Assembly (NCBI GenBank): GCA_947085985.1
Contig: CAMTYL010000004.1
Coordinates: 150,885 to 214,884, forward strand
From: an uncultured bacterium
GTDB lineage: Bacteria > Patescibacteriota > Minisyncoccia > Phycocordibacterales > Phycocordibacteraceae
DNA length: 64,000 bases
Reading direction: 5' to 3'
Of the stretch, positions 25,809-38,859 are shown piece by piece (positions within the stretch are counted from its first letter, which is position 1; every line of letters begins with the position of its first letter). The position numbers were made by a program, and so were the translations under genes. Under the pieces are notes generated by a model. It did no database searches, had not been told where the DNA came from, and saw only the letters and a list, made by a program, of their open reading frames with translations.

Positions 25809-26468
25809 GTGATTTATCTTTTCTGTGGAAGCGACACGAATAAGGTTCGGGCCAAGGCCTTTCAGTGGGTAGAGGCTGCGCGCAGTAAGGCGCCAGACGC
25901 GGTGTATGTGCGACTTACGCCCGAGATGGTGACACCAGAAATGGTGCGCGGCGCGCTCAGTAGTCAGGGACTCTTTTTTTCTAAGTCACTCATCCTTCTA
26001 GACGACCCTTTTTCGCAAAGTGAAACAAGTGAGACGGTACTTGAGCTTCTAGAGGAACTCGCAGCGTCGCAGAATCCCGTTGCCATTCTTGCGCCAAAGC
26101 TTTTGGCCGCGAGAGTGAAAAAGGTAGAAGCAAAAGCAGAGAAGGTATTCAAAATTGATGTTGATAGCGCGCGCCTGCCTGCCGGCAGGCAGGGGTTTAA
26201 TAGTGCGCTCGTAAATGCGCTCGCGAACAAAGACAGCGCAGGGCTGTGGAAAGAATTACATAAAGCGTACCGACAGGGAGACGCGCCCGAACTAGTGCAC
26301 GGACTACTCCACTGGAAAGCACGCGACATGATGCAAAAAGGGAATCCGAAGTGGGGGAAGGACGGAGCGCGTACACTCTCGCGCGAACTGATTGAGTTGG
26401 TGAGCGATTCTAGAAACGGGGACTTGGCGCTTAGGGAGGGGTTGGAGCGGTTTGTGTTAAAAGTGTAG
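25809..26468 (+). CDS. DNA polymerase III delta subunit-like protein (HolA-like)
   Basis: N-terminus IYLFCGSDTNKV resembles HolA. GTG start 13 nt after a TATACT box. Confidence 0.45.
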   Translation: MIYLFCGSDTNKVRAKAFQWVEAARSKAPDAVYVRLTPEMVTPEMVRGALSSQGLFFSKSLILLDDPFSQSETSETVLELLEELAASQNPVAILAPKLLAARVKKVEAKAEKVFKIDVDSARLPAGRQGFNSALVNALANKDSAGLWKELHKAYRQGDAPELVHGLLHWKARDMMQKGNPKWGKDGARTLSRELIELVSDSRNGDLALREGLERFVLKV

Positions 26469-26478
26469 ATATCAGCAC

Positions 26479-26675
26479 GTGCGCCTACCTGGGACGTGAT
26501 TACACTTCTCGCTCCTTACAGGAGCAGTACACCTTGTGGAGATTTTGCTTCATGACTTCGCAAAATCTGCTCACAAGGTCTTCGAGCCCAGGACGCAGGC
26601 TTCCCAAGCCTGCTTAGGCGCACAAATTAAAGAACCGCCAGTGGGGCGGTTCTTTAATTTGTGCGCCTACCTGGG
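26479..26675 (-). repeat. tRNA-3'-associated structured element, Lys copy
   Basis: 15-nt direct repeat GTGCGCCTACCTGGG at 26479-26493 and 26661-26675. 23-bp hairpin GGCGCACAAATTAAAGAACCGCC-agtg-GGGCGGTTCTTTAATTTGTGCGCC overlaps the tRNA 3' end. GCAGGCTT-ccc-AAGCCTGC hairpin. Terminal GTG-TAAT-CAC hairpin. Confidence 0.6.
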
Positions 26676-26734
26676 CTCGAACCAGGGACCGTCTCCTTAA
26701 AAGGGAGCTGCTCTACCAACTGAGCTATAGGCGC
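26662..26734 (-). tRNA. tRNA-Lys (anticodon TTT)
   Basis: Hand-folded cloverleaf: GCGCCTA acceptor, D-arm GCTCAGTTGGTAGAGC, anticodon loop CTTTTAA, T-arm CCTGG-TTCGAGC-CCAGG. Confidence 0.85.
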
Positions 26735-26752
26735 ATGCTCACTGTTATACCG

Positions 26753-27754
26753 CTAATAGGTGTATAGGTCTACGGTTAGCCCATTCTCGTCCAGTAATCT
26801 AATAGCTTCACGCGAGTCTTTCCAGAGCTCTCCGTACCGCATGGTGGAGTCATTCCTGCGGGTTATTTCGGTGCGCCCCAGATAGATGCGCCAGATATCG
26901 CTATAGAAAGATGAGCTGTAGCGATAGTTCTCCACACAACCATTGTACGTGAGGCGTGAGTAGATAAGCGAAAGACAGTTGGCTGAGGTGCGGCTATCTT
27001 CCTGTGGGGTCACACACATGCTCGTATTTCTCACTAAGTTGTAGCAGGCAGTTTCTTTGTACGGGTTTCCGGTGAAGTGCCTATCAAACTCGGACGAAGG
27101 GGAAGGGCAGCGGCGACCAAGAGCAGGAGAGAAACTTTGATTCACTCCCAAATACCCCGTGCACATGTTTTCTGCAAAAGAGCCCCCTATAGGCGATTCT
27201 CCAGTTATCACGTACGCACGCTCACCTGGATACAGCACAATAGGTTCTGAAGCATTAAGTGTGCCACTTGTCGGAAGCTTTGTGCCTTGTGGAATTGTCG
27301 CACTCCTGTCGGTTGCTACAGAGACAAGCTTCCACCCAGTAATGGTTATGGGCTCTGTGGCGCTTGAGGACGCCTGAAGGACAAGGTACTCATGCTGCGG
27401 GTCGGTGGACGAAACATTCCCGCCACTGATAGTCACCAGGCCGCGCTTTGGAGAAGGGGTGCTGAACAGTGCCTGGCGCTTAGACTCTATCTGCAGATTA
27501 CCCAACTGGTACTCAATACTTTGCACACTGCTGCGCACTTCTGCAGAGCGGATACTTGGCAGGCCCCCCGTCACGTTGATGCCACCCTTATACCAATCGG
27601 TGTCACCATAGCCAACTTGAGTCTGTCCAACGCCCGTAACGGGGGTGATGAATGGCCCCGAGAATGAAATAGGATTGCTCGGGCCACCACCAGCAAGCCA
27701 CAAGACAAAGAAAAAGACCATCACTCCGAGAAAAAAGAGGAAGTCGCTTTGCAT
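26753..27754 (-). CDS. secreted/membrane-anchored hypothetical protein
   Basis: N-terminal hydrophobic segment FLFFLGVMVFFFVLWLAGG. 333 aa, Cys-containing C-terminal region. Confidence 0.45.
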   Translation of the reverse strand: MQSDFLFFLGVMVFFFVLWLAGGGPSNPISFSGPFITPVTGVGQTQVGYGDTDWYKGGINVTGGLPSIRSAEVRSSVQSIEYQLGNLQIESKRQALFSTPSPKRGLVTISGGNVSSTDPQHEYLVLQASSSATEPITITGWKLVSVATDRSATIPQGTKLPTSGTLNASEPIVLYPGERAYVITGESPIGGSFAENMCTGYLGVNQSFSPALGRRCPSPSSEFDRHFTGNPYKETACYNLVRNTSMCVTPQEDSRTSANCLSLIYSRLTYNGCVENYRYSSSFYSDIWRIYLGRTEITRRNDSTMRYGELWKDSREAIRLLDENGLTVDLYTY

Positions 27755-27773
27755 AAAAGTATAATACCGCGCC

Positions 27774-29030
27774 CTACTTCATTCGCTTGAGTTCTTCACG
27801 TACTACCTCCGCATCACTCCATGGAGTCCTTTTTCCATTTGCTTCCATGATGTATGGGTCTGTGCCTTTGCCAGTGATAAGCACCGCGTCTCCTGTGCGG
27901 GCAAGCGAAAGGGCAGTGGCAATTGCTTCTCGGCGGTCCATGATAATGCGCGGCTCACGACTCATGCCAGAGGCCATGGCGTCCATAATTGCCTGCGGGT
28001 CTTCGTCGTAGGGGTCTTCGTTTGCAAGGATTACTTCGTCGCAGTGTTCGTCTGCGATTTTACCCATCAGCGGCCGCTTCCAGGTGTCGCGGCCGCCCCC
28101 GGTGTTTCCAAGTACACAAATCTTTCTGCGCTTTCCGTACGCACCGTATAGTGCTGTGAGCGAGTCAGGGGTGTGAGCGTAGTCAACCACCGCAAGAAAA
28201 TCCTGGCCCTCTTCAATTTTTTCAGCGCGTCCTGGAATACGAGTAAGTAAGTGGAGCGCCTCACTACTTTTCTCTAGCGGCACACCAAGCCACGCAGCAG
28301 TCTTAATTGCAGCGAGAGCATTGCGTACAGAAAACTCACCGGGTTGTGGAATATCAAACGACACCCCCTCGTACGTAAACGAAACCGACTCGTTTTGATA
28401 GGAGATATTTGCGGCGTCTCCAATGCTAAACGGCAGCGCTGTTTCTACAGGAAGAGCCAGGTAGGGCTTCGCGTACTCACTGTCACTGTTAGCAATTATC
28501 GCGCGCGGGCGCTTTGTTGAGCGCGCCAGCTCTTCCCCTAGGCGGAACTTCGCGCGCGCGTATGCCTCCATGCTTCCGTGTGACTCAATATGCTCGCGTT
28601 GCAAGTTAGTAAAAATAAGCGCGTCCATAGCAAGGAACAGGTGACGATTCTGGACCGCACCTTCAGAAGTCACTTCAAGCACCGCGTAGCGCGCGCCCTT
28701 ATTTGCAGCGTCAAGCAAAAACTTTTGCAGAAATCCGCGACCAGGCATGGTCATCTTGAATAGGTTTGGGCGCGACTCCTCGTTCACCGCAAAACGGATA
28801 GTGCCGGCCATGGCGGTGGGGTAGTCTGCATGGCGCAAAATAGCAAAGAGCATTTCTGAAACCGAAGACTTTCCCTTGGTGCCCGTGATACCAATCACGG
28901 TTAGCTTTTTCGCAGGGAAGCCGTAGACAAGAGCTGCACCAAACGCCCAGAGCGCATGATAGATACGCATAAGTGCCTGGTGCAGCGAGCGGGGAAGAAG
29001 TGTTGCTAAGAGTGAGCGAAGGAAGTGCAT
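27774..29030 (-). CDS. Mur ligase family protein, MurE-like
   Basis: ATP-binding loop IGITGTKGKSS and DYAHTPDSL motif typical of MurE. Confidence 0.7.
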   Translation of the reverse strand: MHFLRSLLATLLPRSLHQALMRIYHALWAFGAALVYGFPAKKLTVIGITGTKGKSSVSEMLFAILRHADYPTAMAGTIRFAVNEESRPNLFKMTMPGRGFLQKFLLDAANKGARYAVLEVTSEGAVQNRHLFLAMDALIFTNLQREHIESHGSMEAYARAKFRLGEELARSTKRPRAIIANSDSEYAKPYLALPVETALPFSIGDAANISYQNESVSFTYEGVSFDIPQPGEFSVRNALAAIKTAAWLGVPLEKSSEALHLLTRIPGRAEKIEEGQDFLAVVDYAHTPDSLTALYGAYGKRRKICVLGNTGGGRDTWKRPLMGKIADEHCDEVILANEDPYDEDPQAIMDAMASGMSREPRIIMDRREAIATALSLARTGDAVLITGKGTDPYIMEANGKRTPWSDAEVVREELKRMK

Positions 29031-29032
29031 AA

Positions 29033-29587
29033 CTACTTTGATGCGGATGAGAGAGCCGCCTTAAGGCGTGCATCTTTACCAACGGCGGAGCGGGGAATCT
29101 GTCCAAGTGCTCCACGGGCCTCGCGCTCCGTATAGCCGAGTGCAACTAACATATCAAATACGTCCGCGTCGCTTTCATCGTGCCCCTGGTCTCGGCCCCC
29201 AAGCTTCTCAGCAAGTTCTACGATAATTTTCTCCGCAGCTTTCTTTCCAAGGCCGGCAACGCGAGTGAGGTAGTCGAGGTCACGCCCTGCAATCGCGCTC
29301 TCAAGTGAGGCGCGTGGACCACGCCGCATGATTGAAAGCGCGGTCTTTGGTCCTACGTTTGGTACTGAAAGGAGAAGTTCAAAAAAAGCCCGCTCCTCCT
29401 CAATAACAAAGCCGTATAAATCCACCCCGTCCTGTTTAATGGAGAGATAGGTCTTTAAGGTCACCTCGCTGCCGGGAGAAAGCTGTTCCGGAGCAGCCAG
29501 ATGCACAAATACACCCCAGCCAGCCACGTCTACCACCGCACCGACGGTGTCTACTGATAAAACCCTGCCACGAATCTCTCTAATCAT
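29033..29587 (-). CDS. ruvA: Holliday junction DNA helicase subunit RuvA
   Basis: MIREIRGRVLSV... OB-fold N-terminus, helix-hairpin-helix region, 184 aa. Confidence 0.85.
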   Translation of the reverse strand: MIREIRGRVLSVDTVGAVVDVAGWGVFVHLAAPEQLSPGSEVTLKTYLSIKQDGVDLYGFVIEEERAFFELLLSVPNVGPKTALSIMRRGPRASLESAIAGRDLDYLTRVAGLGKKAAEKIIVELAEKLGGRDQGHDESDADVFDMLVALGYTEREARGALGQIPRSAVGKDARLKAALSSASK

Positions 29588-29643
29588 GCCTATATCCTAG
29601 CATTCTTGCATCTGCACCGGATATATCGTACTATCCGTTCTAC

Positions 29644-29907
29644 ATGGCAATCACTTCATCAGCAAAGAAGGCGCACCGAGCTTCCCTTAAGAAGCGCGTA
29701 TATAACGTGCGCCGCAAGCGTGCAGTTACCGACACTACCAAAGCAGTAAAGAAGCTTATGGGGACGGACACCAAGGCAGCAAACGAGTCGCTCAGCGCCG
29801 CATTCAAGGCACTTGATAAGGCAGCAAAGGGAGGCACGATTAAGAAGAACACCGCTGACCGCAAGAAGTCGCGCCTCGCAAAGGCTATCGCTCGCGCAGC
29901 AAAGTAA
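29644..29907 (+). CDS. rpsT: 30S ribosomal protein S20
   Basis: MAITSSAKKAHRASLKKRVYNVRRKRAVT... basic 87-aa protein. Confidence 0.85.
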   Translation: MAITSSAKKAHRASLKKRVYNVRRKRAVTDTTKAVKKLMGTDTKAANESLSAAFKALDKAAKGGTIKKNTADRKKSRLAKAIARAAK

Positions 29908-29911
29908 GAAG

Positions 29912-29937
29912 AAACCCCGGCAAGGCCGGGGTTTTTC
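29912..29937 (+). terminator. intrinsic terminator after rpsT
   Basis: CCCCGGC-aag-GCCGGGG followed by TTTTT. Confidence 0.65.
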
Positions 29938-29949
29938 TTTTATTACTGA

Positions 29950-30139
29950 CTCGGTAGGAACCGGCGAGTACGCCTTTCGGTCACACATAAATCTCTGCTA
30001 AGATTTTGCGCGACCCCCACTCGCCGTCGACACGGCTCCGTGCTTCGATTCCTACACGTGAGCCTCCCAGGCTCACTCGAGAGCACCAAATGAAAACAGC
30101 CCTAACTGGGCTGTTTTCATTTGGTGCTCTCGGTAGGAA
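29950..30139 (-). repeat. tRNA-3'-associated structured element, Arg-GCG copy (element D)
   Basis: 11-nt direct repeat CTCGGTAGGAA at 29950 and 30129. 24-bp hairpin GAGAGCACCAAATGAAAACAGCCC-taact-GGGCTGTTTTCATTTGGTGCTCTC (30079-30131). GAGCCT-ccc-AGGCTC hairpin. Core shares GAATCGAA, GCGAGTGGGGGTCGCG and CGAAAG-GCG-TACT-CGC with the other copies. Confidence 0.6.
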
Positions 30140-30196
30140 TCGAACCTACATTGCATCCTCCGCAAGGATGCGTCCTATCCATTGAACGACGAGAGC
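30125..30196 (-). tRNA. tRNA-Arg (anticodon GCG), CCA encoded
   Basis: Hand-folded: acceptor GCTCTCG/CGAGAGC, anticodon stem CATCC/GGATG with loop TTGCGGA, T-arm GTAGG-TTCGATT-CCTAC, discriminator A then CCA. Confidence 0.75.
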
Positions 30197-30206
30197 GAGT
30201 GAGGCA

Positions 30207-30400
30207 AATAGAAATGTGAACGCAGTTCATGTTTCTATTTCGCCGAGCGAGCTCGTGTACCCCTAACGAGTCTTCGAGTGTACGGGGTACGAGAGCGAGG
30301 TGCTCATTCTGTGCGCCGAACGAGCTTGTGTACCCCCGCGAGTCCTCGAGCAGAGGGGTACGAGAGCCTGGGCTCGCTGACACGTTTTTGACTTTATCCT
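30207..30400. repeat. palindrome plus two tandem ~55-nt structured repeats upstream of tRNA-Arg(GCG)
   Basis: AAATAGAAA...TTTCTATTT palindrome at 30207-30241. Units CGAGCTCGTGTACCCCTAACGAGTCTTCGAGTGTACGGGGTACGAGAGC and CGAGCTTGTGTACCCCCGCGAGTCCTCGAGCAGAGGGGTACGAGAGC, each with a GTACCCC/GGGGTAC stem. Confidence 0.5.
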
Positions 30401-30422
30401 TTCTGAGCACTATTGGCAACTT

Positions 30423-30896
30423 TTACAGGCGGAAGCGATGGATGAGCATGTCAAAGAAAGATTCATCATGTTTACCTTCTTCAACGTGCGCGCTGAAGAA
30501 GTCGTACACCTCTACGGGGTCGTGATCAACAATAGGAACAAGAATGTGGGGGGCAAAAATACGCTTGGTCTTTATGGAGAGAGATGGCGGCCACGCTGGG
30601 TCTGCGTATTCAAGGACCGAGAAGTGGAGCATCTCCTCGTAGGTATATAGAATCTGGTCAACATACAGTCCCTCTTCGGTAATGGTAAATACGTGTCGTG
30701 TCGGAGCGCGCAGTGCCTGAAGGGCAACAGTACCGCTGGCGGCTATCACCACGAGAGCGAGGATGAAATTTCCAAAGAGAATACAGGCAACCACTCCAGC
30801 GACAGCGATAACGCCAAGAGACCAGTACCAGTCGGCACCTTTTTCTTCAAACGTGTATTCCTGTGCTTCCCACTGGTAGAAGACCGTGCGGGCCAT
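30423..30896 (-). CDS. small membrane protein
   Basis: 157 aa with two TM helices (WSLGVIAVAGVVACILFGNFILALVVIAASG). Confidence 0.4.
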   Translation of the reverse strand: MARTVFYQWEAQEYTFEEKGADWYWSLGVIAVAGVVACILFGNFILALVVIAASGTVALQALRAPTRHVFTITEEGLYVDQILYTYEEMLHFSVLEYADPAWPPSLSIKTKRIFAPHILVPIVDHDPVEVYDFFSAHVEEGKHDESFFDMLIHRFRL

Positions 30897-30950
30897 ATAA
30901 ATGTAATACTAGCACTCGTGAGTTGATGTAGATGGAGTAATGCACCAAAA

Positions 30951-30980
30951 GATAAAACCCGCCATGTGGCGGGTTTTATC
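30951..30980. terminator. bidirectional terminator after tRNA-Ser
   Basis: GATAAAACCCGCCA/TGGCGGGTTTTATC perfect palindrome. Confidence 0.65.
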
Positions 30981-30985
30981 TTTTG

Positions 30986-31070
30986 CGGAGGAGGTGGGAT
31001 TCGAACCCACGGAGACTTTCGCCTCGGCGGTTTTCAAGACCGCTCGTTTCGACCACTCACGCACTCCTCC
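30986..31070 (-). tRNA. tRNA-Ser (anticodon TGA)
   Basis: Anticodon loop CTTGAAA, long variable arm CGAGGCGAAAGTCTCCG, T-arm GTGGG-TTCGAAT-CCCAC. Confidence 0.85.
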
Positions 31071-31079
31071 AGAGTGTTT

Positions 31080-31376
31080 TTACGCTTCCGTAGAAGCTGA
31101 TGGTGCTGGTGCCGGTGCGGGAGCAACATGAGAAGCGCTCACGCCTTTATTACGGAACCAGACAAGGTACACAATCTCTGGAATGCCAAGCAGATTCACA
31201 ACAAGCAGAAAGATAAACCAACCGTTCTGCGAGCCGCGCGCTGCGTGCCACAACGCATAGCCCTTAATCGCTACCGTCCATACGACAAACGCCATAAGGA
31301 GAGGAAACGCAAAGGGAAGCGTGAGGAACGACACCATTTCTGGAGCTCCCGGAGCCATGAACCAAGAATTCACCAT
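31080..31376 (-). CDS. small membrane protein
   Basis: 98 aa with two to three TM helices. Ala-Pro repeat at the C-terminus. Confidence 0.4.
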   Translation of the reverse strand: MVNSWFMAPGAPEMVSFLTLPFAFPLLMAFVVWTVAIKGYALWHAARGSQNGWFIFLLVVNLLGIPEIVYLVWFRNKGVSASHVAPAPAPAPSASTEA

Positions 31377-31423
31377 ACCGGGAGACTATAGCACGCCGGC
31401 TGGCTCCCGTGTAGGATTTAGCT

Positions 31424-31837
31424 ATGAGGTACTTGGCAATAGATTTTGGCACCAAGCGTGTGGGGCTTGCGCTCTCCGACGAAGGCGCACACATGGGATT
31501 TCCTCACGGCACACTTCCAAATAACGGACGCCTTATTGATGAGGTGCTAGATTTGGTTGCGCGCAAGGAAGTGGGCGCAGTGGTGATAGGAGAGTCACGC
31601 AATTACGATGGCACTCCGAACCCAGTCGCAAAAGCTGCGAAGGAATTTGGTGCACTTATTGAGCGCAGGCTAGTGGGCATGCCGGTCTACTTTGAACCAG
31701 AGACGCTTACCACCCAAGAAGCCCGTAGAAATTTTGAAGGGGTGCGCGAGCCGGGGAGTGGGGGCGCGCACGTCGACGCGTCAGCCGCTGCACTTATTTT
31801 GACCAGCTACTTAGATAGACTACACAACCATGGATAA
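31424..31837 (+). CDS. ruvX: Holliday-junction-resolvase-like nuclease YqgF/RuvX
   Basis: MRYLAIDFGTKRVGLALSD N-terminus. Confidence 0.8.
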   Translation: MRYLAIDFGTKRVGLALSDEGAHMGFPHGTLPNNGRLIDEVLDLVARKEVGAVVIGESRNYDGTPNPVAKAAKEFGALIERRLVGMPVYFEPETLTTQEARRNFEGVREPGSGGAHVDASAAALILTSYLDRLHNHG

Positions 31838-32213
31838 TTCCGAAGAACCAGTTCTTGAAGAGGTATCAGTGCAAGAGGAGCCGCGCATCAGTATTGATGA
31901 CCTTGCAAAAGTAGAAGTGAAAATTGGAACCGTACTCTCGGCGGAGCAGGTACCAGAGACAGACAAATTGCTAAAGCTCTCCGTTGAATTTGGAGAGGAG
32001 CAAGGAGCACGGCAAATCGTGTCGGGCATTAACGAGTATGTCTCGTCCCCCGAAGAGCTGGTTGGTAAGCAGCTTGCCTTTGTCACGAATTTAAAGCCGC
32101 GCACCATCAAAGGACTTGAAAGCAACGGCATGTTGTTTGCGGTAGGGAACAAGGAGACGTTTGCGTTTCTCACCCCAAGCAAGGAGGTGCCCCCTGGCAC
32201 AAGCGCGCACTAG
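31830..32213 (+). CDS. tRNA-binding domain protein (CsaA/Trbp111-like)
   Basis: DLAKVEVKIGTVLSAEQVPETDKLLKLSVEFGEE pattern of the OB-fold tRNA-binding domain. Confidence 0.7.
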   Translation: MDNSEEPVLEEVSVQEEPRISIDDLAKVEVKIGTVLSAEQVPETDKLLKLSVEFGEEQGARQIVSGINEYVSSPEELVGKQLAFVTNLKPRTIKGLESNGMLFAVGNKETFAFLTPSKEVPPGTSAH

Positions 32214-32278
32214 TTTTACACGACAGTGAAGAGAAGCCGGTCAGCGACCGGCGAGGGAGGCGGTATACTACGAATATA

Positions 32279-33382
32279 ATGTCGGACAGTCTTTTGACCC
32301 GTATAGCACGTACAGAGTTCGCGCCACCGCGGTATCTCTCGCTTACTGCGGCTGGTATAGATATTTCAACCAGCGGAATAAAGGCCGCAGTTCTTGCAGA
32401 ACGTATACACGGCCTTGAGTTAGTGAAATTTGCAGAACACCTATTACCTGCAGGTGCGGTGGTGGGTGGTGAGATAGCGGATCCAAAAGCCGTCATTGAA
32501 GCAGTGCAGACCATCGTCAAAAAGAACAATATCAAGTTTGCAAACATCGCACTTTCGGAATCCCGCAGCTATTTGTTTGAAGCAGTGCTAGAGGGTAACC
32601 ACGAGCAGGCCACCTCTAAAGAGCTCCGCAGCCTTACGGAGTCACACTTAGATGAATACGTGCCCTTGCCGCCAGCAGATGTTGCGTTTGATGTCGCGCT
32701 CACTGCAACAACAAAGGACACCACCACGGTGGTGGGCGTGGGGTATGCACGACGAGTGATAGACGAATCGCTCGCAACGCTAGACGACGTCGGCATCACC
32801 ACGCGCGCGATTGAAAGCGAAATATTTTCAATTGCACGCGCGCTTATTCCCCATGACAGCACCGAGACGGTACTCATCATTGATATAGGAAAGACCACCA
32901 CAAAGTTAGCGGTGGTAACGGGGCAAACCCCACGATTTGCGACAACACTAGATATTGGAGGAGACTCGCTCACGCAGGCAGTGATGAAGCACTTTGGTGT
33001 AAGTGAAGAGGAAGCAAAGAAAGTAAAGGCGGAGAAGGGCTTGGTAAGCGAGGGCGGCAAGGACGAGTACATGTCTTCTATGCTCCTCACGGTTTCAGCA
33101 ATTCGCGACGAAATTAGTCACCGCCTTGAGTACTGGCAGGGGAGGGCGCAGATGGGAACTGCACACGAACCAGTTACTCGTGTCATCCTAACGGGCGGAA
33201 ACGCCACCGTCCGCGGGCTACCAGAGTATTTGGAGACTGCCATTAAGCTCCCGGTGGCACTTGGTGACGTGTTCACCAACCTAGCTTCTCGCGATCATTG
33301 GCTGCCACCCCTTGATTACATGGAGTCGCTCGCGTACGCAACCGCCATTGGTCTTGCACTGCGTGATTTTCACACAACCTAA
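32279..33382 (+). CDS. pilM: type IV pilus assembly protein PilM
   Basis: Actin-like ATPase N-terminus GIDISTSGIKAAVL. 367 aa. Followed by pilN/pilO-like genes. Confidence 0.75.
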   Translation: MSDSLLTRIARTEFAPPRYLSLTAAGIDISTSGIKAAVLAERIHGLELVKFAEHLLPAGAVVGGEIADPKAVIEAVQTIVKKNNIKFANIALSESRSYLFEAVLEGNHEQATSKELRSLTESHLDEYVPLPPADVAFDVALTATTKDTTTVVGVGYARRVIDESLATLDDVGITTRAIESEIFSIARALIPHDSTETVLIIDIGKTTTKLAVVTGQTPRFATTLDIGGDSLTQAVMKHFGVSEEEAKKVKAEKGLVSEGGKDEYMSSMLLTVSAIRDEISHRLEYWQGRAQMGTAHEPVTRVILTGGNATVRGLPEYLETAIKLPVALGDVFTNLASRDHWLPPLDYMESLAYATAIGLALRDFHTT

Positions 33383-33385
33383 GCC

Positions 33386-33931
33386 ATGAACCTGCTCCCC
33401 GACAGTAGAAAGAAGCGTCTCGCACAACTCTATCTGGTGAGGCTAAGTGTGGTGAGCGCCGCACTCCTCGCGGCGGTGGGCGTAATTCACGCTGCGCTCT
33501 CCATTCCTTCACTTGTGTACGCACATCAGCTGGTGACCGACCGCACACAGACACTCTCCAGTCTTGGTGAGCAGCTGGCAGGAGCGGAGGATAAGCAGGT
33601 TGGAGAGCGTGTAGCGCACCTGGCTACTTCTGCCACAGCGCTCACGGGAAGCACACAAGGAGTGGCAGTGAGCAGCTTACTTCGCGCGCTCACTCAGATT
33701 GATCATCCGGGAGTTTCAATTACAGGCATGTCGTTTACTCGCGCACAGGCCCCGGATGCACACCGGCTTACTATTTCTGGAAAGGCAATAGGAAGAGGAG
33801 CACTACGCTCATATGCGACTGCACTTGGAACGCTTTCGTACGTAAAGACTGTTGATTTGCCCGTCAGTGCGTATGCAAAGGAAAGTGATATTGATTTCTC
33901 GCTTACGCTCATAGGTACCCTCACGCCATGA
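33386..33931 (+). CDS. PilN-like pilus assembly protein
   Basis: Single N-terminal TM helix (LSVVSAALLAAVGVIHAAL) with coiled-coil. Position after pilM. Confidence 0.5.
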   Translation: MNLLPDSRKKRLAQLYLVRLSVVSAALLAAVGVIHAALSIPSLVYAHQLVTDRTQTLSSLGEQLAGAEDKQVGERVAHLATSATALTGSTQGVAVSSLLRALTQIDHPGVSITGMSFTRAQAPDAHRLTISGKAIGRGALRSYATALGTLSYVKTVDLPVSAYAKESDIDFSLTLIGTLTP

Positions 33932-34458
33932 ACCGCCCCCTCTTACTTCACGCGCTCGTTGCTCTAGCCTTACTAGTAATTGCACTTAGTGCAGTGGTTG
34001 GCACGTCGATCGTGCTTGTAAGTACGGAAAAGGAGGCGGACCGTCTCGCAGCACAGATTGAAGAGAAGCAGGCAGAAATGCTCCGTGTGGCCGCAGCAAA
34101 GGCAGCGCTCCCGCTACTGGTAGAGGCTGAAGGAAAACTCGCAAAGCACAGCTTGCAAACAAGCGACATAGTCCCGTTTCTGGAAGAACTTGAGAGGCTG
34201 GGTAGGGTGCAGGGAGCAGACGTTGAAGTACTGTCAGTAACGGGAGGGCAAGGAAATCCTGCTCAACGTTTTTCACTCTCTCTCAAGGTGTCTGGCTCCT
34301 ACGACGCAGTGGCGCGCACCATTGGACGCATTGAATACGGACCGTACGACACTCAACTCACCACGCTCACTATTGATAGCGGCTTCGCAGAAGGATCAAA
34401 GAACAGGACATGGACTGCAGCGGCTGTTTTCTCAATAGGCGCCAGCGCCACCAACTAG
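33928..34458 (+). CDS. PilO-like pilus assembly protein
   Basis: N-terminal TM helix plus coiled-coil (AAQIEEKQAEMLRVAAAKAAL). Overlapping start with the upstream gene. Confidence 0.5.
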   Translation: MNRPLLLHALVALALLVIALSAVVGTSIVLVSTEKEADRLAAQIEEKQAEMLRVAAAKAALPLLVEAEGKLAKHSLQTSDIVPFLEELERLGRVQGADVEVLSVTGGQGNPAQRFSLSLKVSGSYDAVARTIGRIEYGPYDTQLTTLTIDSGFAEGSKNRTWTAAAVFSIGASATN

Positions 34459-34459
34459 T

Positions 34460-34765
34460 ATGAAAAAATTATTTCCCTCACTACACACGGTTAAAGAGCT
34501 GTTTAAGGTACGGACGCACACGCACCCCGCGCGCGATTGGTTTGTGTTGCTTGGTCTCACTGCACTCCTAATAGGCCTAAGTATTGGTTGGAATGTATGG
34601 AGGTACCTTTCAGTTACCAGCACTCCTGCAACAGAGAGCGAGACAGTGGCAATACCTGAGTTTGATACGAGTGCCGTGGACGCTGTGGAGAAGGTGTTTG
34701 AAGAACGCGCCGCTGAAGCGCGTCGCTACCAGGACACCTATCGTTTCGTTGACCCAAGCCGATAA
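34460..34765 (+). CDS. small membrane protein in the pilMNO cluster
   Basis: 101 aa with one TM helix (FVLLGLTALLIGLSIGWNVW). Confidence 0.35.
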   Translation: MKKLFPSLHTVKELFKVRTHTHPARDWFVLLGLTALLIGLSIGWNVWRYLSVTSTPATESETVAIPEFDTSAVDAVEKVFEERAAEARRYQDTYRFVDPSR

Positions 34766-34784
34766 CCTGGGCTACTGTAGAGGA

Positions 34785-34856
34785 GCCCCCATAGCTCAAT
34801 GGATAGAGCAGGAGACTTCTAAGCTCTTGATGTAGGTTCGATTCCTGCTGGGGGCA
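34785..34856 (+). tRNA. tRNA-Arg (anticodon TCT)
   Basis: Acceptor GCCCCCA/TGGGGGC, D-arm GCTCAATGGATAGAGC, anticodon loop CTTCTAA, T-arm GTAGG-TTCGATT-CCTGC. Confidence 0.85.
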
Positions 34857-35043
34857 CAAAAATGAAAAACTAAGACGGCGTCTTAGTTTTTCTATTTTTT
34901 GTAGGCACCAGCAGGAATCGAAAGCCGGAGCGATACGCGAGCAGCAGCGAGCGTCGCGAGGTGGGGTCGCGTGCATTTGCGAGTGACGACGAGCAAATAA
35001 CAGGTGACCGAAAGTGGTACTCCACGGTTCCTGCTCCAGGCAC
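34857..35043 (+). repeat. tRNA-3'-associated structured element, Arg-TCT copy (element A)
   Basis: AAAATGAAAAACTAAGACG hairpin overlaps the tRNA 3' end. Core has GAATCGAAAGCCGGAGCGAT, GCGAGGTGGGGTCGCG, GCGAGTGACGACGAG and CGAAAG-TGG-TACT-CCA-CGG. Ends with a degenerate copy of the tRNA 3' end (TTCCTGCTCCAGGCAC). Confidence 0.6.
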
Positions 35044-35052
35044 ATAAACACG

Positions 35053-35080
35053 AAAAGGACCGGCAACGGCCGGTCCTTTT
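35053..35080. terminator. bidirectional terminator after tRNA-Val
   Basis: AAAAGGACCGGC-aac-GCCGGTCCTTTT. Confidence 0.65.
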
Positions 35081-35089
35081 CTGTGCGGG

Positions 35090-35162
35090 TGGGCGATAGA
35101 GGACTCGAACCTCTGACCATTCCGGTGTAAACGGAGTGCTCTACCAACTGAGCTAATCGCCC
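35090..35162 (-). tRNA. tRNA-Val (anticodon TAC)
   Basis: Acceptor GGGCGAT, D-arm GCTCAGTTGGTAGAGC, anticodon loop TTTACAC, T-arm AGAGG-TTCGAGT-CCTCT. Confidence 0.85.
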
Positions 35163-35235
35163 GCAGGAGAACAATACCGCAGGTATGAAATTTTGGAAAG
35201 CAACCAACGTCGGCTATGCTTGGTTCTTATAGACT

Positions 35236-35514
35236 ATGAACGAGCGCATAGAGGCAAAGGTTAGTGGCCGAGTGCAAATGGTGATGTATCGCGATTTTGC
35301 TACACGCAAAGCGCGTGGGCTGCGCCTCGTGGGGGAAGTGCAAAACCTACCTGACAAAACGGTGCGCGTGGTCGCCGAAGGACCGAAAGAGAAACTGGTT
35401 GTGTACACACAAAAGCTGAACAAGGGCTCATTACTCTCGCACGTGACAAACGTAGAGGTCTCGTGGCTACCTGCGCAGGGAACACACACTACCTTTTCAA
35501 TTAACTATGACTAA
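35236..35514 (+). CDS. acyP: acylphosphatase
   Basis: VSGRVQMVMYRDFATRKARGLRLVGEVQNLPDKTVRVVAEG matches the acylphosphatase signatures. Confidence 0.8.
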   Translation: MNERIEAKVSGRVQMVMYRDFATRKARGLRLVGEVQNLPDKTVRVVAEGPKEKLVVYTQKLNKGSLLSHVTNVEVSWLPAQGTHTTFSINYD

Positions 35515-36196
35515 AGGCGAGGTACCGAAGGCTATCGGGGTGATTCTTGATGGTAACCGCCGCTGGGCGAGGGAGCAGGGCCTACCTCCGTTTGAAGGTC
35601 ACCGTGAAGGTTCCGAGCGAGTAAAAGATCTGGTGCGGTGGGCGCGAGAAGTTGGTATCGGAACAGTGTATATTTATGCATTTTCAACAGAAAACTGGAA
35701 CCGAGCAGAAGAAGAAGTCAGTTATCTCATGAAGCTGATGGCAAAATTCTTTTCCGAGGGGATTGTGGATGAAATAGAAAAGGAAGACGGCAGGGTTGTT
35801 TTCTTGGGCGACCGGGGCCGCATACCGCCGGAGCTTGTTTATGAGATGGAACGCGCCGAGGAGCGGACGCGTAATGGAAAGGGTGGGACGCTTGCGGTCT
35901 GTTTGTCATACGGAGGACGTGCGGAAATTGTGGCGGCAGCAAACAAGCTCATTCGGGAAGGGAAAGAAATTGAGAGCGAAGAGGAATTTTCGCGAGCATT
36001 ATGGAGTGCGGACCTTCCTGATCCAGACCTCATCATTCGCACGAGTGGGGAGCAGCGCCTCTCAGGGTTTCTCACCTGGCAGTCAGTGTATAGCGAGCTG
36101 TTTTTTACCGACACCAAGTGGCCAGCGTTCACTAAGGAGGAATTCCTTTCTATCCTTGAGGAGTACAGTGCGCGAGAGCGCCGTAAAGGAAAATAG
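35507..36196 (+). CDS. uppS: isoprenyl transferase (undecaprenyl-diphosphate synthase)
   Basis: AIGVILDGNRRWAREQGL and FSTENWNR motifs. Confidence 0.85.
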   Translation: MTKGEVPKAIGVILDGNRRWAREQGLPPFEGHREGSERVKDLVRWAREVGIGTVYIYAFSTENWNRAEEEVSYLMKLMAKFFSEGIVDEIEKEDGRVVFLGDRGRIPPELVYEMERAEERTRNGKGGTLAVCLSYGGRAEIVAAANKLIREGKEIESEEEFSRALWSADLPDPDLIIRTSGEQRLSGFLTWQSVYSELFFTDTKWPAFTKEEFLSILEEYSARERRKGK

Positions 36197-36218
36197 GTAT
36201 CTGTGATAGGGTGAGCTC

Positions 36219-36959
36219 ATGAACCCTGAAATCCTCTATGAGGACGACAATATTGTCGCTATCAATAAGCCGGCGGGCACCATGACGCACCCAGATGGGC
36301 ACACCTCCGACGAAACGGTGAGTGATTGGTTTGCGCGTGCGTACCCAGCTTCACGCGAGGTAGGGGAGACGCAGCGCCTACCTGACGGCACGGAGATAGC
36401 GCGCCCTGGCGTAGTGCATCGTCTTGATCGCGACACGTCGGGTGTGTTGATTTTAGTAAAGACTCCTGAGGCTCACGTGTTCTATAAGGCAGCATTCCAA
36501 GAGCGGCTCACCAAGAAGACGTATCTTGCGGTGGTGTACGGCACGCTAAAAGAAGAGAAGGGAACCATTGAGTTTGCTATTGGCCGTTCTCGAAAGGATT
36601 TCCGCCTACGTTCCGCACAGCCAAAGGCGCGCGGCACGCTGCGGGAGGCCATCACGCACTACGAGGTTATAGATAGTATCGGCACGCATTCGCTCGTGAA
36701 AGTAATGCCAGAAACGGGCAGAACGCATCAAATCCGTGTCCACCTGAAAGCACTCCATCATCCGGTTGTCTGCGATCCGCTGTACGCGATTGGAAAACCG
36801 TGTGATTTGGGGACCTCGCGACTGGCCCTTCATGCAGTGAGCCTGGTCCTACCACTCCCAGAAGGAGGCACTGTTCGCGTACAAGCACCAGTCCCGGGCG
36901 ATCTTGCCAACGCCATTTCGGTCTTTCCAGAAGCCGCGTCAGTTATTGCCTCATTCTAG
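36219..36959 (+). CDS. RluA-family pseudouridine synthase
   Basis: RPGVVHRLDRDTSGVLILVKT catalytic Asp motif and HQIRVHL. Confidence 0.8.
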   Translation: MNPEILYEDDNIVAINKPAGTMTHPDGHTSDETVSDWFARAYPASREVGETQRLPDGTEIARPGVVHRLDRDTSGVLILVKTPEAHVFYKAAFQERLTKKTYLAVVYGTLKEEKGTIEFAIGRSRKDFRLRSAQPKARGTLREAITHYEVIDSIGTHSLVKVMPETGRTHQIRVHLKALHHPVVCDPLYAIGKPCDLGTSRLALHAVSLVLPLPEGGTVRVQAPVPGDLANAISVFPEAASVIASF

Positions 36960-36983
36960 GCCGCATGGTAGAGTGCGCGAATC

Positions 36984-37493
36984 ATGCATACCGTAATCAC
37001 CCCCGTACCAACCAATGAACGAGCCAGTCTCGGCATTCGTTCCGGCGACACCGTTCGCGTCCACCAGAAGGTGGTAGAGAAGGGTAAGACCCGTCTCCAG
37101 GTATTTGAGGGCCTTGTTATTGCCGTTAAGCACGGCACAGAGCCAGGAGCTACCTTTACCGTACGCGCCACCCTATCAGGTGTTGGTGTAGAGAAGATTT
37201 TCCCTCTATACAGCCCAGTTATTGATAAGATTGAGATCACCAAGCGCTCTAAGGTTCGCCGTGCAAAGCTCTACTTCATCCGTGAGAAGGTTGCTCGCGA
37301 GGTACGTCGCCAGCTTCGCAACATGCGCATGGTGAAGATCTCCACCGATGACTTCAAGAAGGAGGAGGCTCCTATCGTTGAGGAGACTGTAGAAGAGGCA
37401 ACTGAAGCTCCTGAGGTAGTGGTTGAGGCTACTGAGACCGAGGAGGTGGCTGCCGCGACCGAAACTACTGAGGAAGAGAAGAAGGACGCGTAA
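36984..37493 (+). CDS. rplS: 50S ribosomal protein L19 with acidic C-terminal extension
   Basis: [27 protein letters not shown]19 core. E/T-rich tail. Confidence 0.9.
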
Positions 37494-37514
37494 TACGCCC
37501 CAGCATATTTGTAA

Positions 37515-37556
37515 AAAATGAGCCGGCCCGCTATAGTAAGCGGGCCGGCTCATTTT
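37515..37556 (+). terminator. intrinsic terminator after rplS
   Basis: AAAATGAGCCGGCCCGC-tatagta-AGCGGGCCGGCTCATTTT. Confidence 0.7.
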
Positions 37557-37571
37557 GAGCTCGTATGCCAT

Positions 37572-37656
37572 GCCCAGGTGGTGAAATTGGTATACACGCA
37601 TCCTTGAGGTGGATGTGGCTTCGGCTGTGGAGGTTCAAGTCCTCTCCTGGGCACCA
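37572..37656 (+). tRNA. tRNA-Leu (anticodon GAG), CCA encoded
   Basis: Anticodon loop TTGAGGT, long variable arm TGGCTTCGGCTGT, T-arm GGAGG-TTCAAGT-CCTCT, acceptor GCCCAGG/CCTGGGC. Confidence 0.85.
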
Positions 37657-37852
37657 AATGAAAAAACGCCTTCGGGCGTTTTTTCATTTGGTGCCCAGGA
37701 AGCAGGGTGTCTGCACACCCTGCAGGAGGACTTGAAAGCCGGAGCGATGCTTTGCTCAGCAGAGCAAAGCCGCGAGGCGGGGCTGCGACCGAGCCGAGTG
37801 ACGACGAGGCGAGAGTTGTAGCCAAAAGCGTAATCGCGTGTCCTCTCCTGGG
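37653..37852 (+). repeat. tRNA-3'-associated structured element, Leu copy (element B)
   Basis: 25-bp hairpin CCTGGGCACCAAATGAAAAAACGCC-ttcg-GGCGTTTTTTCATTTGGTGCCCAGG. GCAGGGTG-tctgca-CACCCTGC hairpin. Core carries GGAGGACTTGAAAGCCGGAGCGAT, GCGAGGCGGGG, GAGTGACGACGAG and AAAGCG-TAAT-CGC. Direct repeat GTCCTCTCCTGGGC at 37639 and 37839, exactly 200 bp apart. Confidence 0.65.
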
Positions 37853-37898
37853 CCGCATTTCATCATTTTCCGAAAAACGTGCTATAACGCATCTACAT

Positions 37899-37972
37899 GG
37901 CGGCTATAGTTTAGTGGTAAAACTCAGGTTTGTGGAGCCTGTATCGAGAGTTCGATTCTCTCTAGCCGCCCA
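37899..37972 (+). tRNA. tRNA-His (anticodon GTG) with G-1
   Basis: G-1 followed by GCGGCTA acceptor and discriminator C. Anticodon loop TTGTGGA. T-arm GAGAG-TTCGATT-CTCTC. Confidence 0.85.
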
Positions 37973-38175
37973 GATATGAAAACCGCCTTTGGCGGCTTTT
38001 TCATATCTGGGCGGCTAAGCAGGTAATCTGCATTACCTGCGAGAGAGAATCGAACGCCGGAGCATGTTTCTCTCAGTAGAGAGAAACAGCGAGGCGGTGC
38101 CCAGAGCAAGCCGAGTGACGACGAGGCGCAGACTCGCGGGCGAAAGTGGTAATCCACGTTTCTCTCTAGCCGCCC
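37973..38175 (+). repeat. tRNA-3'-associated structured element, His copy (element C)
   Basis: Hairpin TAGCCGCCCAGATATGAAAACCGCC-tttg-GCGGCTTTTTCATATCTGGGCGGCTA. GCAGGTAAT-ctgc-ATTACCTGC hairpin. Core carries GAGAGAGAATCGAACGCCGGAGC, GCGAGGCGGTG, GAGTGACGACGAG and CGAAAG-TGG-TAAT-CCA-CG. 17-nt direct repeat TTCTCTCTAGCCGCCCA at 37956 and 38159. Confidence 0.65.
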
Positions 38176-38286
38176 AAATCAGCCAACCCAGAAGTGAATA
38201 CTTCCGGGTTGTTGCTGTTTGCAGAAGCTAGCTTGTCTTTTGGTCTGGTTGCACATACCATTCCCTTCGGAAAAGGGGGTATCAAC

Positions 38287-38859
38287 ATGTACAAAGTTTT
38301 TGCAGGGTTCAAGGTTCCCGAAATCTTGAACCCGTTTGCGGAAAATATCGACCGACTCGTGGTGGTACACGGCGGACCTGTCGTGCGGCGTAAACACCCA
38401 CTACACGTCACCGTCATGGCGCCACGAACCGTACGAGATCAGCAGCGCCATGAGCTCGAAGCGTTTGCACAGGAGTTCAATACTGACTACGGAAATGTGC
38501 CGTGTCGTATTGCGTCCCTTCAGCGCTACGAGCACCGCAGCAAGAAGTTCTTTGTTGCAAGTCTCACGGGGCAGCAATTGAGCGACACCATTGATCACTT
38601 TCACCACGAGCTGCATAGGAGATTTTCCTTCACACGGCGTCAACATGAGGGAACAAAGCCTCACATAACGCTGGTCAGCTCCAAGCACACGCGAAGGCAA
38701 GAGGTGTTTGACCGCGTGGTCAGTGCCGCTCACAGTATTGAGTACCCGCGAGAGCCTCTCCGTCTCCCGCACATCGTTCTTCATGTCCACAAGGAGGGAA
38801 CAGAATTACCGCACGTTTCGCCGCCACCAGGTGAACCGCACGCTGGGTGGCAGCCATAG
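38287..38859 (+). CDS. 2H phosphoesterase superfamily protein (LigT / 2'-5' RNA ligase-like)
   Basis: Two H-x-T/S-x motifs (HVTVM; HITLVS) at the expected spacing. AAGGGGG RBS before ATG 38287. Confidence 0.6.
   Translation: MYKVFAGFKVPEILNPFAENIDRLVVVHGGPVVRRKHPLHVTVMAPRTVRDQQRHELEAFAQEFNTDYGNVPCRIASLQRYEHRSKKFFVASLTGQQLSDTIDHFHHELHRRFSFTRRQHEGTKPHITLVSSKHTRRQEVFDRVVSAAHSIEYPREPLRLPHIVLHVHKEGTELPHVSPPPGEPHAGWQP

Follow-up and report, generated by a model that had tools for sequence, protein, structure and literature searches.

Structured RNA cassettes with target-derived flanks behind conserved genes of Patescibacteria: a candidate protein-less mobile element

Group IIC introns are structured RNAs that insert in the sense orientation directly downstream of intrinsic-terminator hairpins, occur in multiple copies and include derivatives without open reading frames (ORFs). 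The minimal mobile elements of Neisseria are cassettes without enzymes that are exchanged by natural transformation, through recombination in the conserved genes flanking them. Theta ribozymes, minimal ribozymes like that of hepatitis delta virus (HDV), adjoin phage tRNAs (PMC10879173), and group II introns are reported to be absent from Patescibacteria (PMC13011429). Here we analysed a stretch of 64,000 nucleotides (the window) from an uncultured bacterium of the Patescibacteriota, a lineage of the candidate phyla radiation (CPR) (assembly GCA_947085985.1, contig CAMTYL010000004.1, positions 150,885 to 214,884), in which small structured elements, referred to here by their conserved core as R1, follow tRNA genes. 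A first reading of the window from its letters (the original prediction) had described five such elements as a new class of tRNA-linked structured RNA or non-autonomous mobile element. The reading that we favour, in a judgement that stands at the balance point and not beyond it, is a non-autonomous, protein-less mobile cassette that is built around a structured RNA and colonises the 3' flanks of conserved genes in CPR bacteria. Observed in its favour are a conserved sense-strand RNA fold, target-derived flanks, insertions that vary among close relatives, switching between targets, and a placement behind the terminator-type hairpins of conserved genes that is strictly co-oriented with them.

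Seven tRNA genes were recognised in the window by ARAGORN and Rfam, and five of them carry a same-strand element of ~190-200 nt directly 3' of the gene (Table 1). The five placements predicted, behind tRNA-Lys, tRNA-Arg(GCG), tRNA-Arg(UCU), tRNA-Leu and tRNA-His, were confirmed. All five copies share one frame, in which the tRNA 3' end and its trailer form the 5' arm of a 22-25-bp hairpin, an inverted copy runs through the acceptor into the T-stem and T-loop to end at TCGAA, and a cargo is followed by a hairpin, P5 (GAAAG-stem-UAMU-stem), and by a direct copy of the tRNA that sets in at the T-loop. The hairpin built on the tRNA 3' end, the inverted cognate T-arm, P5 and the direct repeat were thus found in every copy, as predicted, the direct repeat with a decayed acceptor part in both Arg copies; the ATGAAAA motif and GC clamp that had been attributed to the first hairpin did not stand, being the general terminator look of the lineage. 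In four copies a small hairpin splits the inverted acceptor from the inverted T-stem; Leu and His have CUGC as its loop, Arg-GCG and Lys have UGGG(A). It is missing from Arg-UCU, where it had also been expected. The predicted common core held for three copies (Arg-UCU, Leu and His; 76-93 bits), which contain GCCGGAGC, GCGAGGYGG and GAGTGACGACGAG. It is reduced in Arg-GCG (38 bits), where P2 is short and GAGUGACGACGA is lacking, and is replaced in Lys by an unrelated cargo that the R1 model misses. Model E-values in the window range from 1e-15 to 1e-20, apart from 3.7e-7 for the Arg-GCG copy, and transcripts comprising tRNA plus element, when folded whole, gave z scores of about -12, values far outside what chance would give.

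The conserved unit, R1, is a core of ~95 nt (roughly 100 nt) built of two long hairpins. It is closed by the stem P1, in which an inverted copy (X') of the end of the upstream gene (X) pairs with a direct copy of X. The first hairpin, P2, has the form GCC-GGA-GC ... GC-GA-GGC, with a conserved GGA/GA internal loop and an ANYA tetraloop. The second is formed by P3 (GGUCGCGG/CCGUGACC) and P4 and contains tandem G.A pairs and a GRCG tetraloop. The top of P4, GAGUGACGACGA, consists of these tandem G.A pairs, two Watson-Crick pairs and the GRCG tetraloop. Its 12 nt were considered as a single-stranded loop and this was ruled out; variants such as GAGCGACGGCGA and UUGCGGCGGCAA covary, and the segment is therefore a helix extension. 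A hairpin lies upstream of the core in 67 of 76 elements, mostly ending 12-14 nt before it and with a CUGC loop in 27, and P5 with its UAMU loop is often present 3' of the core. The idea that the CUGC loop kisses the loop of P2 was also rejected, as the two showed no covariation and P2 is capped by an ANYA tetraloop.

A covariance model built from 29 cores gave 99 matches across 75 sources, in CPR loci. Paired cells amounted to 94.7% in the R1 alignment, compared to 66.8% after shuffling and about 35% after sliding. Compensatory changes were found in 23 of the 24 pairs of this alignment, which was fitted to the model, and in 18 of the 24 in an independent run with MAFFT and RNAalifold. In all 76 cores folding favours the plus strand over the minus strand (-40.8 versus -29.4 kcal/mol, mean gap 11.4), and one R1 pair is G.U in 32 sequences, which identifies the folded strand as the upstream gene's sense strand. 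No Rfam 15 family, tRNA-like RNAs, tmRNA, RNase P, group I and II introns and the HDV-like, hammerhead, twister, hatchet, pistol and HEARO classes included, was detected on the cores, the seven tRNAs being the only features to pass gathering thresholds, and a permissive scan of positions 26300-38400 (E <= 10) returned only chance-level matches of miRNA-type hairpins on the cores. Known ribozyme classes had no match in sequence or structure in these scans. A known RNA family was ruled out at both thresholds, and the expectation of a structured, non-coding and new family is supported by the model, the covariation and the Rfam results.

Homologues occur outside the window throughout the CPR/Patescibacteria. 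A composite pattern scan over 185,579 species genomes yielded about 26 true loci, all of them in CPR/Patescibacteria (Saccharibacteria, Paceibacteria, Kaiser-, Woese- and Komeilibacteria, Minisyncoccia and Uhrbacteria); high-GC pattern matches were discarded as chance matches in coding DNA. Every one of the 35 R1 matches in the 26 genome loci lies just 3' of a tRNA and in the same orientation. A metagenome scan contributed 108 further loci. Directly 3' of tRNAs, with 28 different anticodons, lie 53 of the 84 unique cores. R1 cores also stand directly behind protein genes, checked with Pfam, namely rpsI (S9), at seven loci drawn from three or more lineages, rplL (L7/L12) and topA, where the core follows the zinc-ribbon C-terminus of topoisomerase I. 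At these genes the parts come in the usual order (gene end X, terminator-like hairpin, inverted X', core and direct X), and the direct copy reaches up to 65 nt and retains the stop codon. Since the core also follows rpsI, rplL and topA, the 'inverted T-arm' is a copy of whatever lies upstream. These copies, with their inverted and direct repeats of protein-gene ends, leave the original view of the elements as tRNA-linked by nature without support and rule out a tRNA-specific design; the tRNA-matching parts are not supported as the element's own, and the transferable conserved unit is the ~95-nt core only. The targets are highly conserved genes that are presumably highly transcribed.

Viral contigs, phage records and plasmids gave zero R1 matches, which rules out a phage or plasmid origin. 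A host outside the CPR was also ruled out, the sole 'Gammaproteobacteria' locus, L106, being an Uhrbacteria genome. This contig (CAZKGL010000001.1, 839 kb) was deposited as 'uncultured Gammaproteobacteria' and encodes proteins annotated as Candidatus Uhrbacteria, and its taxonomic label is probably wrong. At L005 (2600-2720, plus strand) the 3' end ahead of an R1 copy, GGTTCGAATCCCTCC, is T-arm/acceptor-like, and ARAGORN calls no tRNA there. Intron-containing tRNAs have been described for Patescibacteria (PMC13011429), and the host gene at L005 may be one of this kind. At L116 (1850-2100, plus strand) an R1 copy with its own hairpin and the closing stem GAGAGGGAGAUUUGAA / AAAUCU..CUCCCUCUCUCC has no recognisable upstream gene; it may be an orphan, its host gene having been lost or left without annotation.

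The flanks of R1 match their targets well above control levels. Over 67 elements the inverted repeat (X':X) scored 25 versus 12 for shuffled controls, and the direct repeat (X:A2) scored 26.7 versus 14.1. Of 50 tRNA-linked copies, 40 have an inverted copy whose end falls precisely on the complement of T54, and the other ten are 'short'. Nucleotides 57-61 mark the beginning of the distal copy, and among the 39 tRNA-linked copies scored about half have it perfect over 59-73; a truncated distal copy retains the T-stem part that pairs in P1. Direct repeats are 4 to about 65 nt long, depending on the gene, and usually stop at the tRNA end, where a separate terminator follows, the palindrome centre lying 20-30 nt beyond. 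X' also lengthens the upstream terminator hairpin.

Several sources of these repeats were considered and rejected. A simple staggered cut, in which the repeat reaches the palindrome centre, fits L113, L034 and L085, but most repeats end at the tRNA end. Copying from a mature tRNA with its post-transcriptional CCA is left ambiguous by L058 only, all others matching the gene including its trailer. The differences between the 65-nt repeats of L178 are not adenine-specific, contrary to mutagenesis of the diversity-generating retroelement type, and an IS91-like GTTC target matches the T-loop but fails at protein-gene junctions. Apart from these rejected sources, the T-loop GTTCGAN and the inverted ATCGAAN, with the boundary at G53|T54, resemble the R boxes of integron R''/R' core sites (RYYYAAC / GTTRRRY) imperfectly, and no such motif occurs at the protein-gene targets.

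By its L19 homologues the organism is a member of the Paceibacteria. Syntenic loci of relatives were located through L19 homologues (85-93% identical), and three orthologous tRNA sites were compared. The tRNA-Arg(UCU) site is filled in the window and empty in L123-L126, where an ordinary terminator is followed by a convergent tRNA-Val; no degenerate or remnant copy was seen there. The tRNA-Leu site is filled in the window and in L122 (full core), degenerate in L123 and L124 (divergent core), reduced to a core-less remnant in L121 and empty in L125 and L126. At the tRNA-His site the window, L121 and L208 are filled, L123 and L125 are empty, and degenerate or remnant copies were not seen. The orthologous His cores of the window and L121 are identical in P3/P4 and differ in all variable stems by compensatory changes, and the His core of L208 is identical to that of the window. 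The two terminators flanking the His element are swapped between the window (38184-38231) and L208 despite their identical cores, which suggests recombination between two older filled alleles, and the decayed remnant GCTGTTTGCAGAAGCTAG behind the window copy is probably a trace of an older insertion.

Tandem arrays were found in L056, L060, L100, L161 and L177. In the first three the units stand behind one tRNA and the distal ones are more decayed, and in L161 a whole unit is repeated exactly in tandem. In L134 a foreign rpsI 3' fragment travels along with the element. The tRNA-Leu element of L208 (571-718, plus strand) has an insertion of ~55 nt in the top of P4 (GAGU^GACGACGA). The insert carries the motif GCGAGCAAAGCGAGUUAGUAA, similar to the 'type 2' cargo described below, and looks like a nested insertion of another mini-element. 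Cores that are at least 92% identical share the same target, and cores 80-90% identical often have different ones (Val~Pro 0.90, Ala~Gly 0.89, topA~Pro 0.87), these identities being inflated by retrieval with patterns that fix about 25 nucleotides. Where cores are shared across different targets, homology ends at the core borders. Polymorphic sites, arrays and target switching support the behaviour of a non-autonomous mobile element that had been suggested for the five window copies. No transposase, integrase or reverse transcriptase was found near 73 loci, at which the 550 neighbouring ORFs, once clustered, belonged to housekeeping families only; an autonomous version or adjacent partner protein was ruled out on these grounds, and the longer form with an integrase beside the same repeats, which the original prediction had envisaged, was looked for at these loci and none was found.

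The same frame also carries other cargos. The 'type 3' cargo of the Lys copy, which the R1 model misses, has nhmmer homologues, likewise set in this frame, in L147, L161 and L177 (two copies). A third cargo, 'type 2' (..GGGUCGCCGAGGUGGGGCCGCGAGUACUUAUGAGUAAAGCGAAUUAGUAACUCGGGGCCGCG), forms arrays behind tRNA-Trp, upstream of an R1 unit, with the same arrangement of inverted and direct repeats. Coordinates of all these features are given in Table 1.

Table 1. Features of the five window copies and their host genes, and positions of the type 2 cargo in other loci (positions of the window unless a locus is named).
Feature	Position	Strand	Remark
tRNA-Lys(UUU), host gene of copy 1	26661-26734	-	ARAGORN and Rfam
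Copy 1, 25-bp hairpin of tRNA-Lys 3' end and trailer with own inverted copy	26615-26669	-	
Copy 1, small hairpin AGCAGGCU-UGGGA-AGCCUGCG	26594-26614	-	Same UGGGA-loop hairpin in homologues L147, L161, L177
Copy 1, inverted tRNA-Lys T-arm ending TCGAA	26581-26593	-	5' strand of P1
Copy 1, type 3 cargo: long hairpin and GCUCCU-GUA-AGGAGC hairpin	26511-26580	-	Not R1 core
Copy 1, P5 (GAGAAG-UG-UAAU-CA-CG), then direct tRNA-Lys 3' copy TCCCAGGTAGGCGCAC	26479-26510	-	
tRNA-Arg(GCG), host gene of copy 2	30122-30196	-	ARAGORN and Rfam
Copy 2, 24-bp hairpin including tRNA 3' end	30079-30131	-	
Copy 2, small hairpin with UGGG loop	30057-30078	-	
Copy 2, inverted T-arm	30044-30056	-	
Copy 2, reduced R1 core: P2 cut to CACGGAGCCGU-GUCG-ACGGCGAGUG, P4 top replaced	29975-30044	-	cmsearch 38.3 bits, E = 3.7e-7
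Copy 2, P5 (GAAAG-GCG-UACU-CGC-CGG), then direct T-stem and half-acceptor copy TTCCTACCGAGTCAG	29946-29978	-	
tRNA-Arg(UCU), host gene of copy 3	34785-34857	+	ARAGORN and Rfam
Copy 3, terminator-like hairpin	34855-34901	+	Then decayed inverted acceptor; small hairpin absent
Copy 3, inverted T-arm AGCAGGAATCGAA	34910-34922	+	
Copy 3, R1 core (P2, P3, P4)	34922-35013	+	cmsearch 75.9 bits
Copy 3, P5 hairpin	35010-35027	+	
Copy 3, direct copy TTCCTGCTCCAGGCACA	35028-35044	+	
Copy 3, second terminator	35048-35085	+	Resembles terminator at empty orthologous site of L123
tRNA-Leu(GAG), host gene of copy 4	37572-37656	+	ARAGORN and Rfam
Copy 4, 22-bp hairpin/terminator including tRNA 3' end	37649-37696	+	
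Copy 4, small CUGC-loop hairpin	37700-37723	+	
Copy 4, inverted T-arm AGGAGGACTTGAA	37724-37736	+	
Copy 4, R1 core	37736-37827	+	cmsearch 92.7 bits, E = 7.5e-20
Copy 4, P5 (AAAAG-CG-UAAU-CG-CGUG), then direct copy TCCTCTCCTGGGC	37824-37853	+	
tRNA-His(GUG), host gene of copy 5	37900-37971	+	ARAGORN and Rfam
Copy 5, 25-bp hairpin/terminator including tRNA 3' end	37963-38017	+	
Copy 5, small CUGC-loop hairpin	38018-38040	+	
Copy 5, inverted T-arm GAGAGAGAATCGAA	38041-38054	+	
Copy 5, R1 core	38054-38145	+	cmsearch 86.4 bits
Copy 5, P5 hairpin	38142-38158	+	
Copy 5, direct copy TTTCTCTCTAGCCGCCCA	38159-38176	+	
Copy 5, second terminator	38184-38211	+	
Copy 5, decayed inverted acceptor remnant GCTGTTTGCAGAAGCTAG	38214-38231	+	
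Type 2 cargo, L056	1640-1900	-	
Type 2 cargo, L060	6200-6700	-	
Type 2 cargo, L100	5930-6075	-	

At about 18 bp, the near-perfect palindromes of the intrinsic terminators in this genome (30913-30984, 35048-35085 and about 37515-37555) are unusually long, and their A-tract and T-tract arms render them bidirectional. At tRNA-Ser the terminator hairpin begins immediately after the gene end. ATGAAAA with its GC clamp is also present in the L19 terminator (about 37515-37555), in the tRNA-Ser terminator and in the terminators at the empty sites of relatives, and it was ruled out as a motif of the element. The 3' CCA is not encoded in most tRNA genes of the window (Arg, His and Lys) and is encoded in tRNA-Leu. 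Directly after the tRNA-His element lies a gene for a LigT-like 2H phosphoesterase of the 2',5' RNA ligase family (38194-38859, plus strand). L125, whose His site is empty, has this gene, and L121, L123 and L208 lack it. The gene, which codes for an RNA-end-healing enzyme, is probably unrelated to the adjoining RNA elements.

A scheme of movement can be outlined for a mobile cassette, although its particular enzymology is held with much less confidence than the mobile-cassette reading itself. The core RNA would have no promoter of its own and would be produced by read-through of the upstream terminator, because no promoter-like site was found ahead of the cores. The inserted block would consist of a replacement gene end, the hairpin, X' and the core, and the host gene would therefore stay intact. 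The displaced original gene end would become the distal repeat, followed by the resident terminator; this is suggested by the usual stop of the direct repeat at the tRNA end and by the terminator downstream of the Arg-UCU copy, which resembles that at the empty site of L123. For spread between orthologous sites DNA uptake and homologous recombination would suffice, with the gene and the distal copy as homology arms, which would explain why the most conserved genes are targets. New targets would be reached rarely and need a templated step, because a matched inverted copy of 10-45 nt cannot arise by mutation. The most plausible route to them is polymerase copy-back or template switching on a single-stranded intermediate (RNA, cDNA or single-stranded DNA) whose 3' end would be the terminator hairpin, so that X' and X would be re-templated from the new gene end, with catalysis in trans. 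Rather unlikely, in our estimation, is a mobile RNA without any enzyme gene, whose core would be freed from read-through transcripts of tRNA and ribosomal-protein genes and re-inserted behind the terminators of other strongly transcribed genes by copy-back, template switching or its own catalysis, each insertion writing inverted and direct copies of the target. Such an RNA would be a bacterial counterpart of mobility of the R2 or short interspersed nuclear element (SINE) type, or of ribozyme-driven mobility, with target-templated flanks.

A number of observations weigh against a mobile cassette. No mobilising enzyme was found among the neighbours of the 73 loci, no truly young insertion with pristine junctions was seen among the loci compared, and the cores taken to have switched target were retrieved by patterns that inflate their identities. 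The sharp boundary at T54 has no mechanistic account, and simple copy-back does not account for the conserved small hairpin that many tRNA-linked copies have exactly between the inverted acceptor and T-stem. Many of the upstream hairpins resemble efficient terminators, which would restrict read-through. The deep conservation of junction nucleotides across CPR classes would suit an RNA useful to the host equally well.

Such an RNA would be a host-beneficial, cis-acting module at gene 3' ends, a possibility that deserves attention and that we consider doubtful. The core would act as a ribozyme or as a platform for proteins, through which read-through RNA is processed, degraded or terminated, as a fail-safe terminator or in the 3'-end maturation or quality control of tRNAs and ribosomal-protein operons. 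The sense-strand structure, strong covariation and invariant junction nucleotides over several CPR classes agree with this, as do the constant position after terminators of translation-machinery genes and the retention of stems in orthologous copies through compensatory changes. X' has two mutually exclusive pairings, with the upstream gene end and with the distal copy, that could form a switch, and in minimum-free-energy folds the distal copy can displace the tRNA's own 3' strand; a precedent is provided by theta ribozymes beside tRNAs (PMC10879173). However, the element is dispensable at every site examined, because close relatives have empty sites, and its tandem accumulation, remnants and nested insertion resemble selfish DNA. 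The presence of different cargos in one frame and the lack of a match to known ribozyme classes also argue against a host function. As any closing stem would serve an RNA, the derivation of P1 from the gene points to a mechanism of insertion and not to a function.

The direct repeats and folded hairpins could alternatively belong to a cassette of single-stranded DNA that is moved by a host- or trans-encoded recombinase of the integron attC or Xer type, with the core and hairpins as the folded recombination site and the crossover in the T-loop at G53|T54, like G|TT of integrons. Conserved hairpin structure with variable sequence, strand-specific folding, tandem arrays with different cargos and the 40 of 50 inverted copies that end at the complement of T54 would agree with this, and both the terminator swap between the window and L208 and the tandem units of L161 fit excision of a circle and its re-integration at direct repeats. 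We nonetheless regard such a cassette as improbable: there is no integrase near the 73 loci, the protein-gene targets share no GTT-like boundary motif, the T-loop matches the integron R box only imperfectly, and a DNA mechanism does not demand universal co-orientation with the upstream gene. Site-specific recombination also fails to explain one core at dozens of targets with perfectly matched flanks. Least credible is a tRNA-like non-coding RNA, that is, an acceptor/T-arm minihelix recognised by RNase P, the CCA-adding enzyme and synthetases, with the core grafted at the T-loop position. With the distal copy perfect over 59-73 in about half of the cases a cognate minihelix of 12-16 bp is possible, and the small hairpin is located where the D and anticodon arms would be. 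Against this, the core is found without tRNA-like flanks behind rpsI, rplL and topA and in the ten 'short' tRNA-linked copies, the distal acceptor part is often lost while the element is still there, and CCA is not consistent in the distal copy.

CPR/Patescibacteria have streamlined, tiny genomes, yet these elements flank five of the seven tRNA genes of the window and recur across the radiation. If they are mobile, they represent a new way for an RNA-structured element of ~100 nt to spread with no encoded protein, and their target-copied flanks have no counterpart in known transposons, introns or integrative elements. If they are useful to the host, they would be a new and widespread RNA device on the 3' ends of translation-machinery transcripts. 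Either reading gives a testable handle on the RNA biology and genome dynamics of an uncultivated superphylum. The elements also matter for annotation, as tRNA calling, assembly and binning can be misled by their distal tRNA fragments and long palindromes.

No prior description of R1 elements was found in the literature searched, and we rate R1 as a new kind of element, because it lacks a defining feature of each known family against which it was tested and no such description came to light. Genomic islands with tRNA-targeting tyrosine integrases also insert in the 3' part of a gene, supply a replacement end, leave a direct repeat and accumulate in tandem. The R1 cassette differs from them in its length of ~200 bp, its lack of an integrase, its extra inverted copy of the target, its sense-strand RNA-type structure as the conserved part and the occurrence of one core at more than 30 different targets. 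Like group IIC introns, R1 inserts in the sense orientation just 3' of a terminator-like stem-loop, but it has neither domain V/VI nor conserved intron ends and no match to a group II model at E <= 10, and its 95 nt compare with more than 600 nt for introns, which do not duplicate their target. Miniature inverted-repeat transposable elements and palindromic repeats (REP/BIME, Correia, RUP, BOX and the Rickettsia palindromic elements) are also small, non-coding, multi-copy, intergenic, often located after genes and non-autonomous. Their terminal inverted repeats are element-borne and uniform, whereas those of R1 are copied from the neighbouring gene and are target-specific; R1 also lacks a short target duplication of fixed length and has strong RNA covariation on the sense strand.

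With R2 elements and SINEs, R1 would share, by inference only, reliance on host transcription, an orientation that is fixed, recognition through a structured RNA, target duplications whose length varies, and lack of autonomy. The sense-strand RNA structure, the strict co-orientation and the presumably strong transcription of the targets are indirect pointers to an RNA intermediate. It differs in having no linked reverse transcriptase and no poly(A) or other 3' tail, and its inverted target copy has no counterpart in them. Theta ribozymes are likewise small structured RNAs immediately 3' of tRNA genes, but R1 has no HDV-like fold or Rfam match, carries a terminator-like hairpin between tRNA and core, also follows protein genes and is not found in viral contigs. 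Like the minimal mobile elements of Neisseria, R1 has no enzymes of its own and would move via conserved flanking genes. In R1, by contrast, the cassette itself contains the right homology arm, as a copy of the gene end, and it carries a structured RNA instead of genes.

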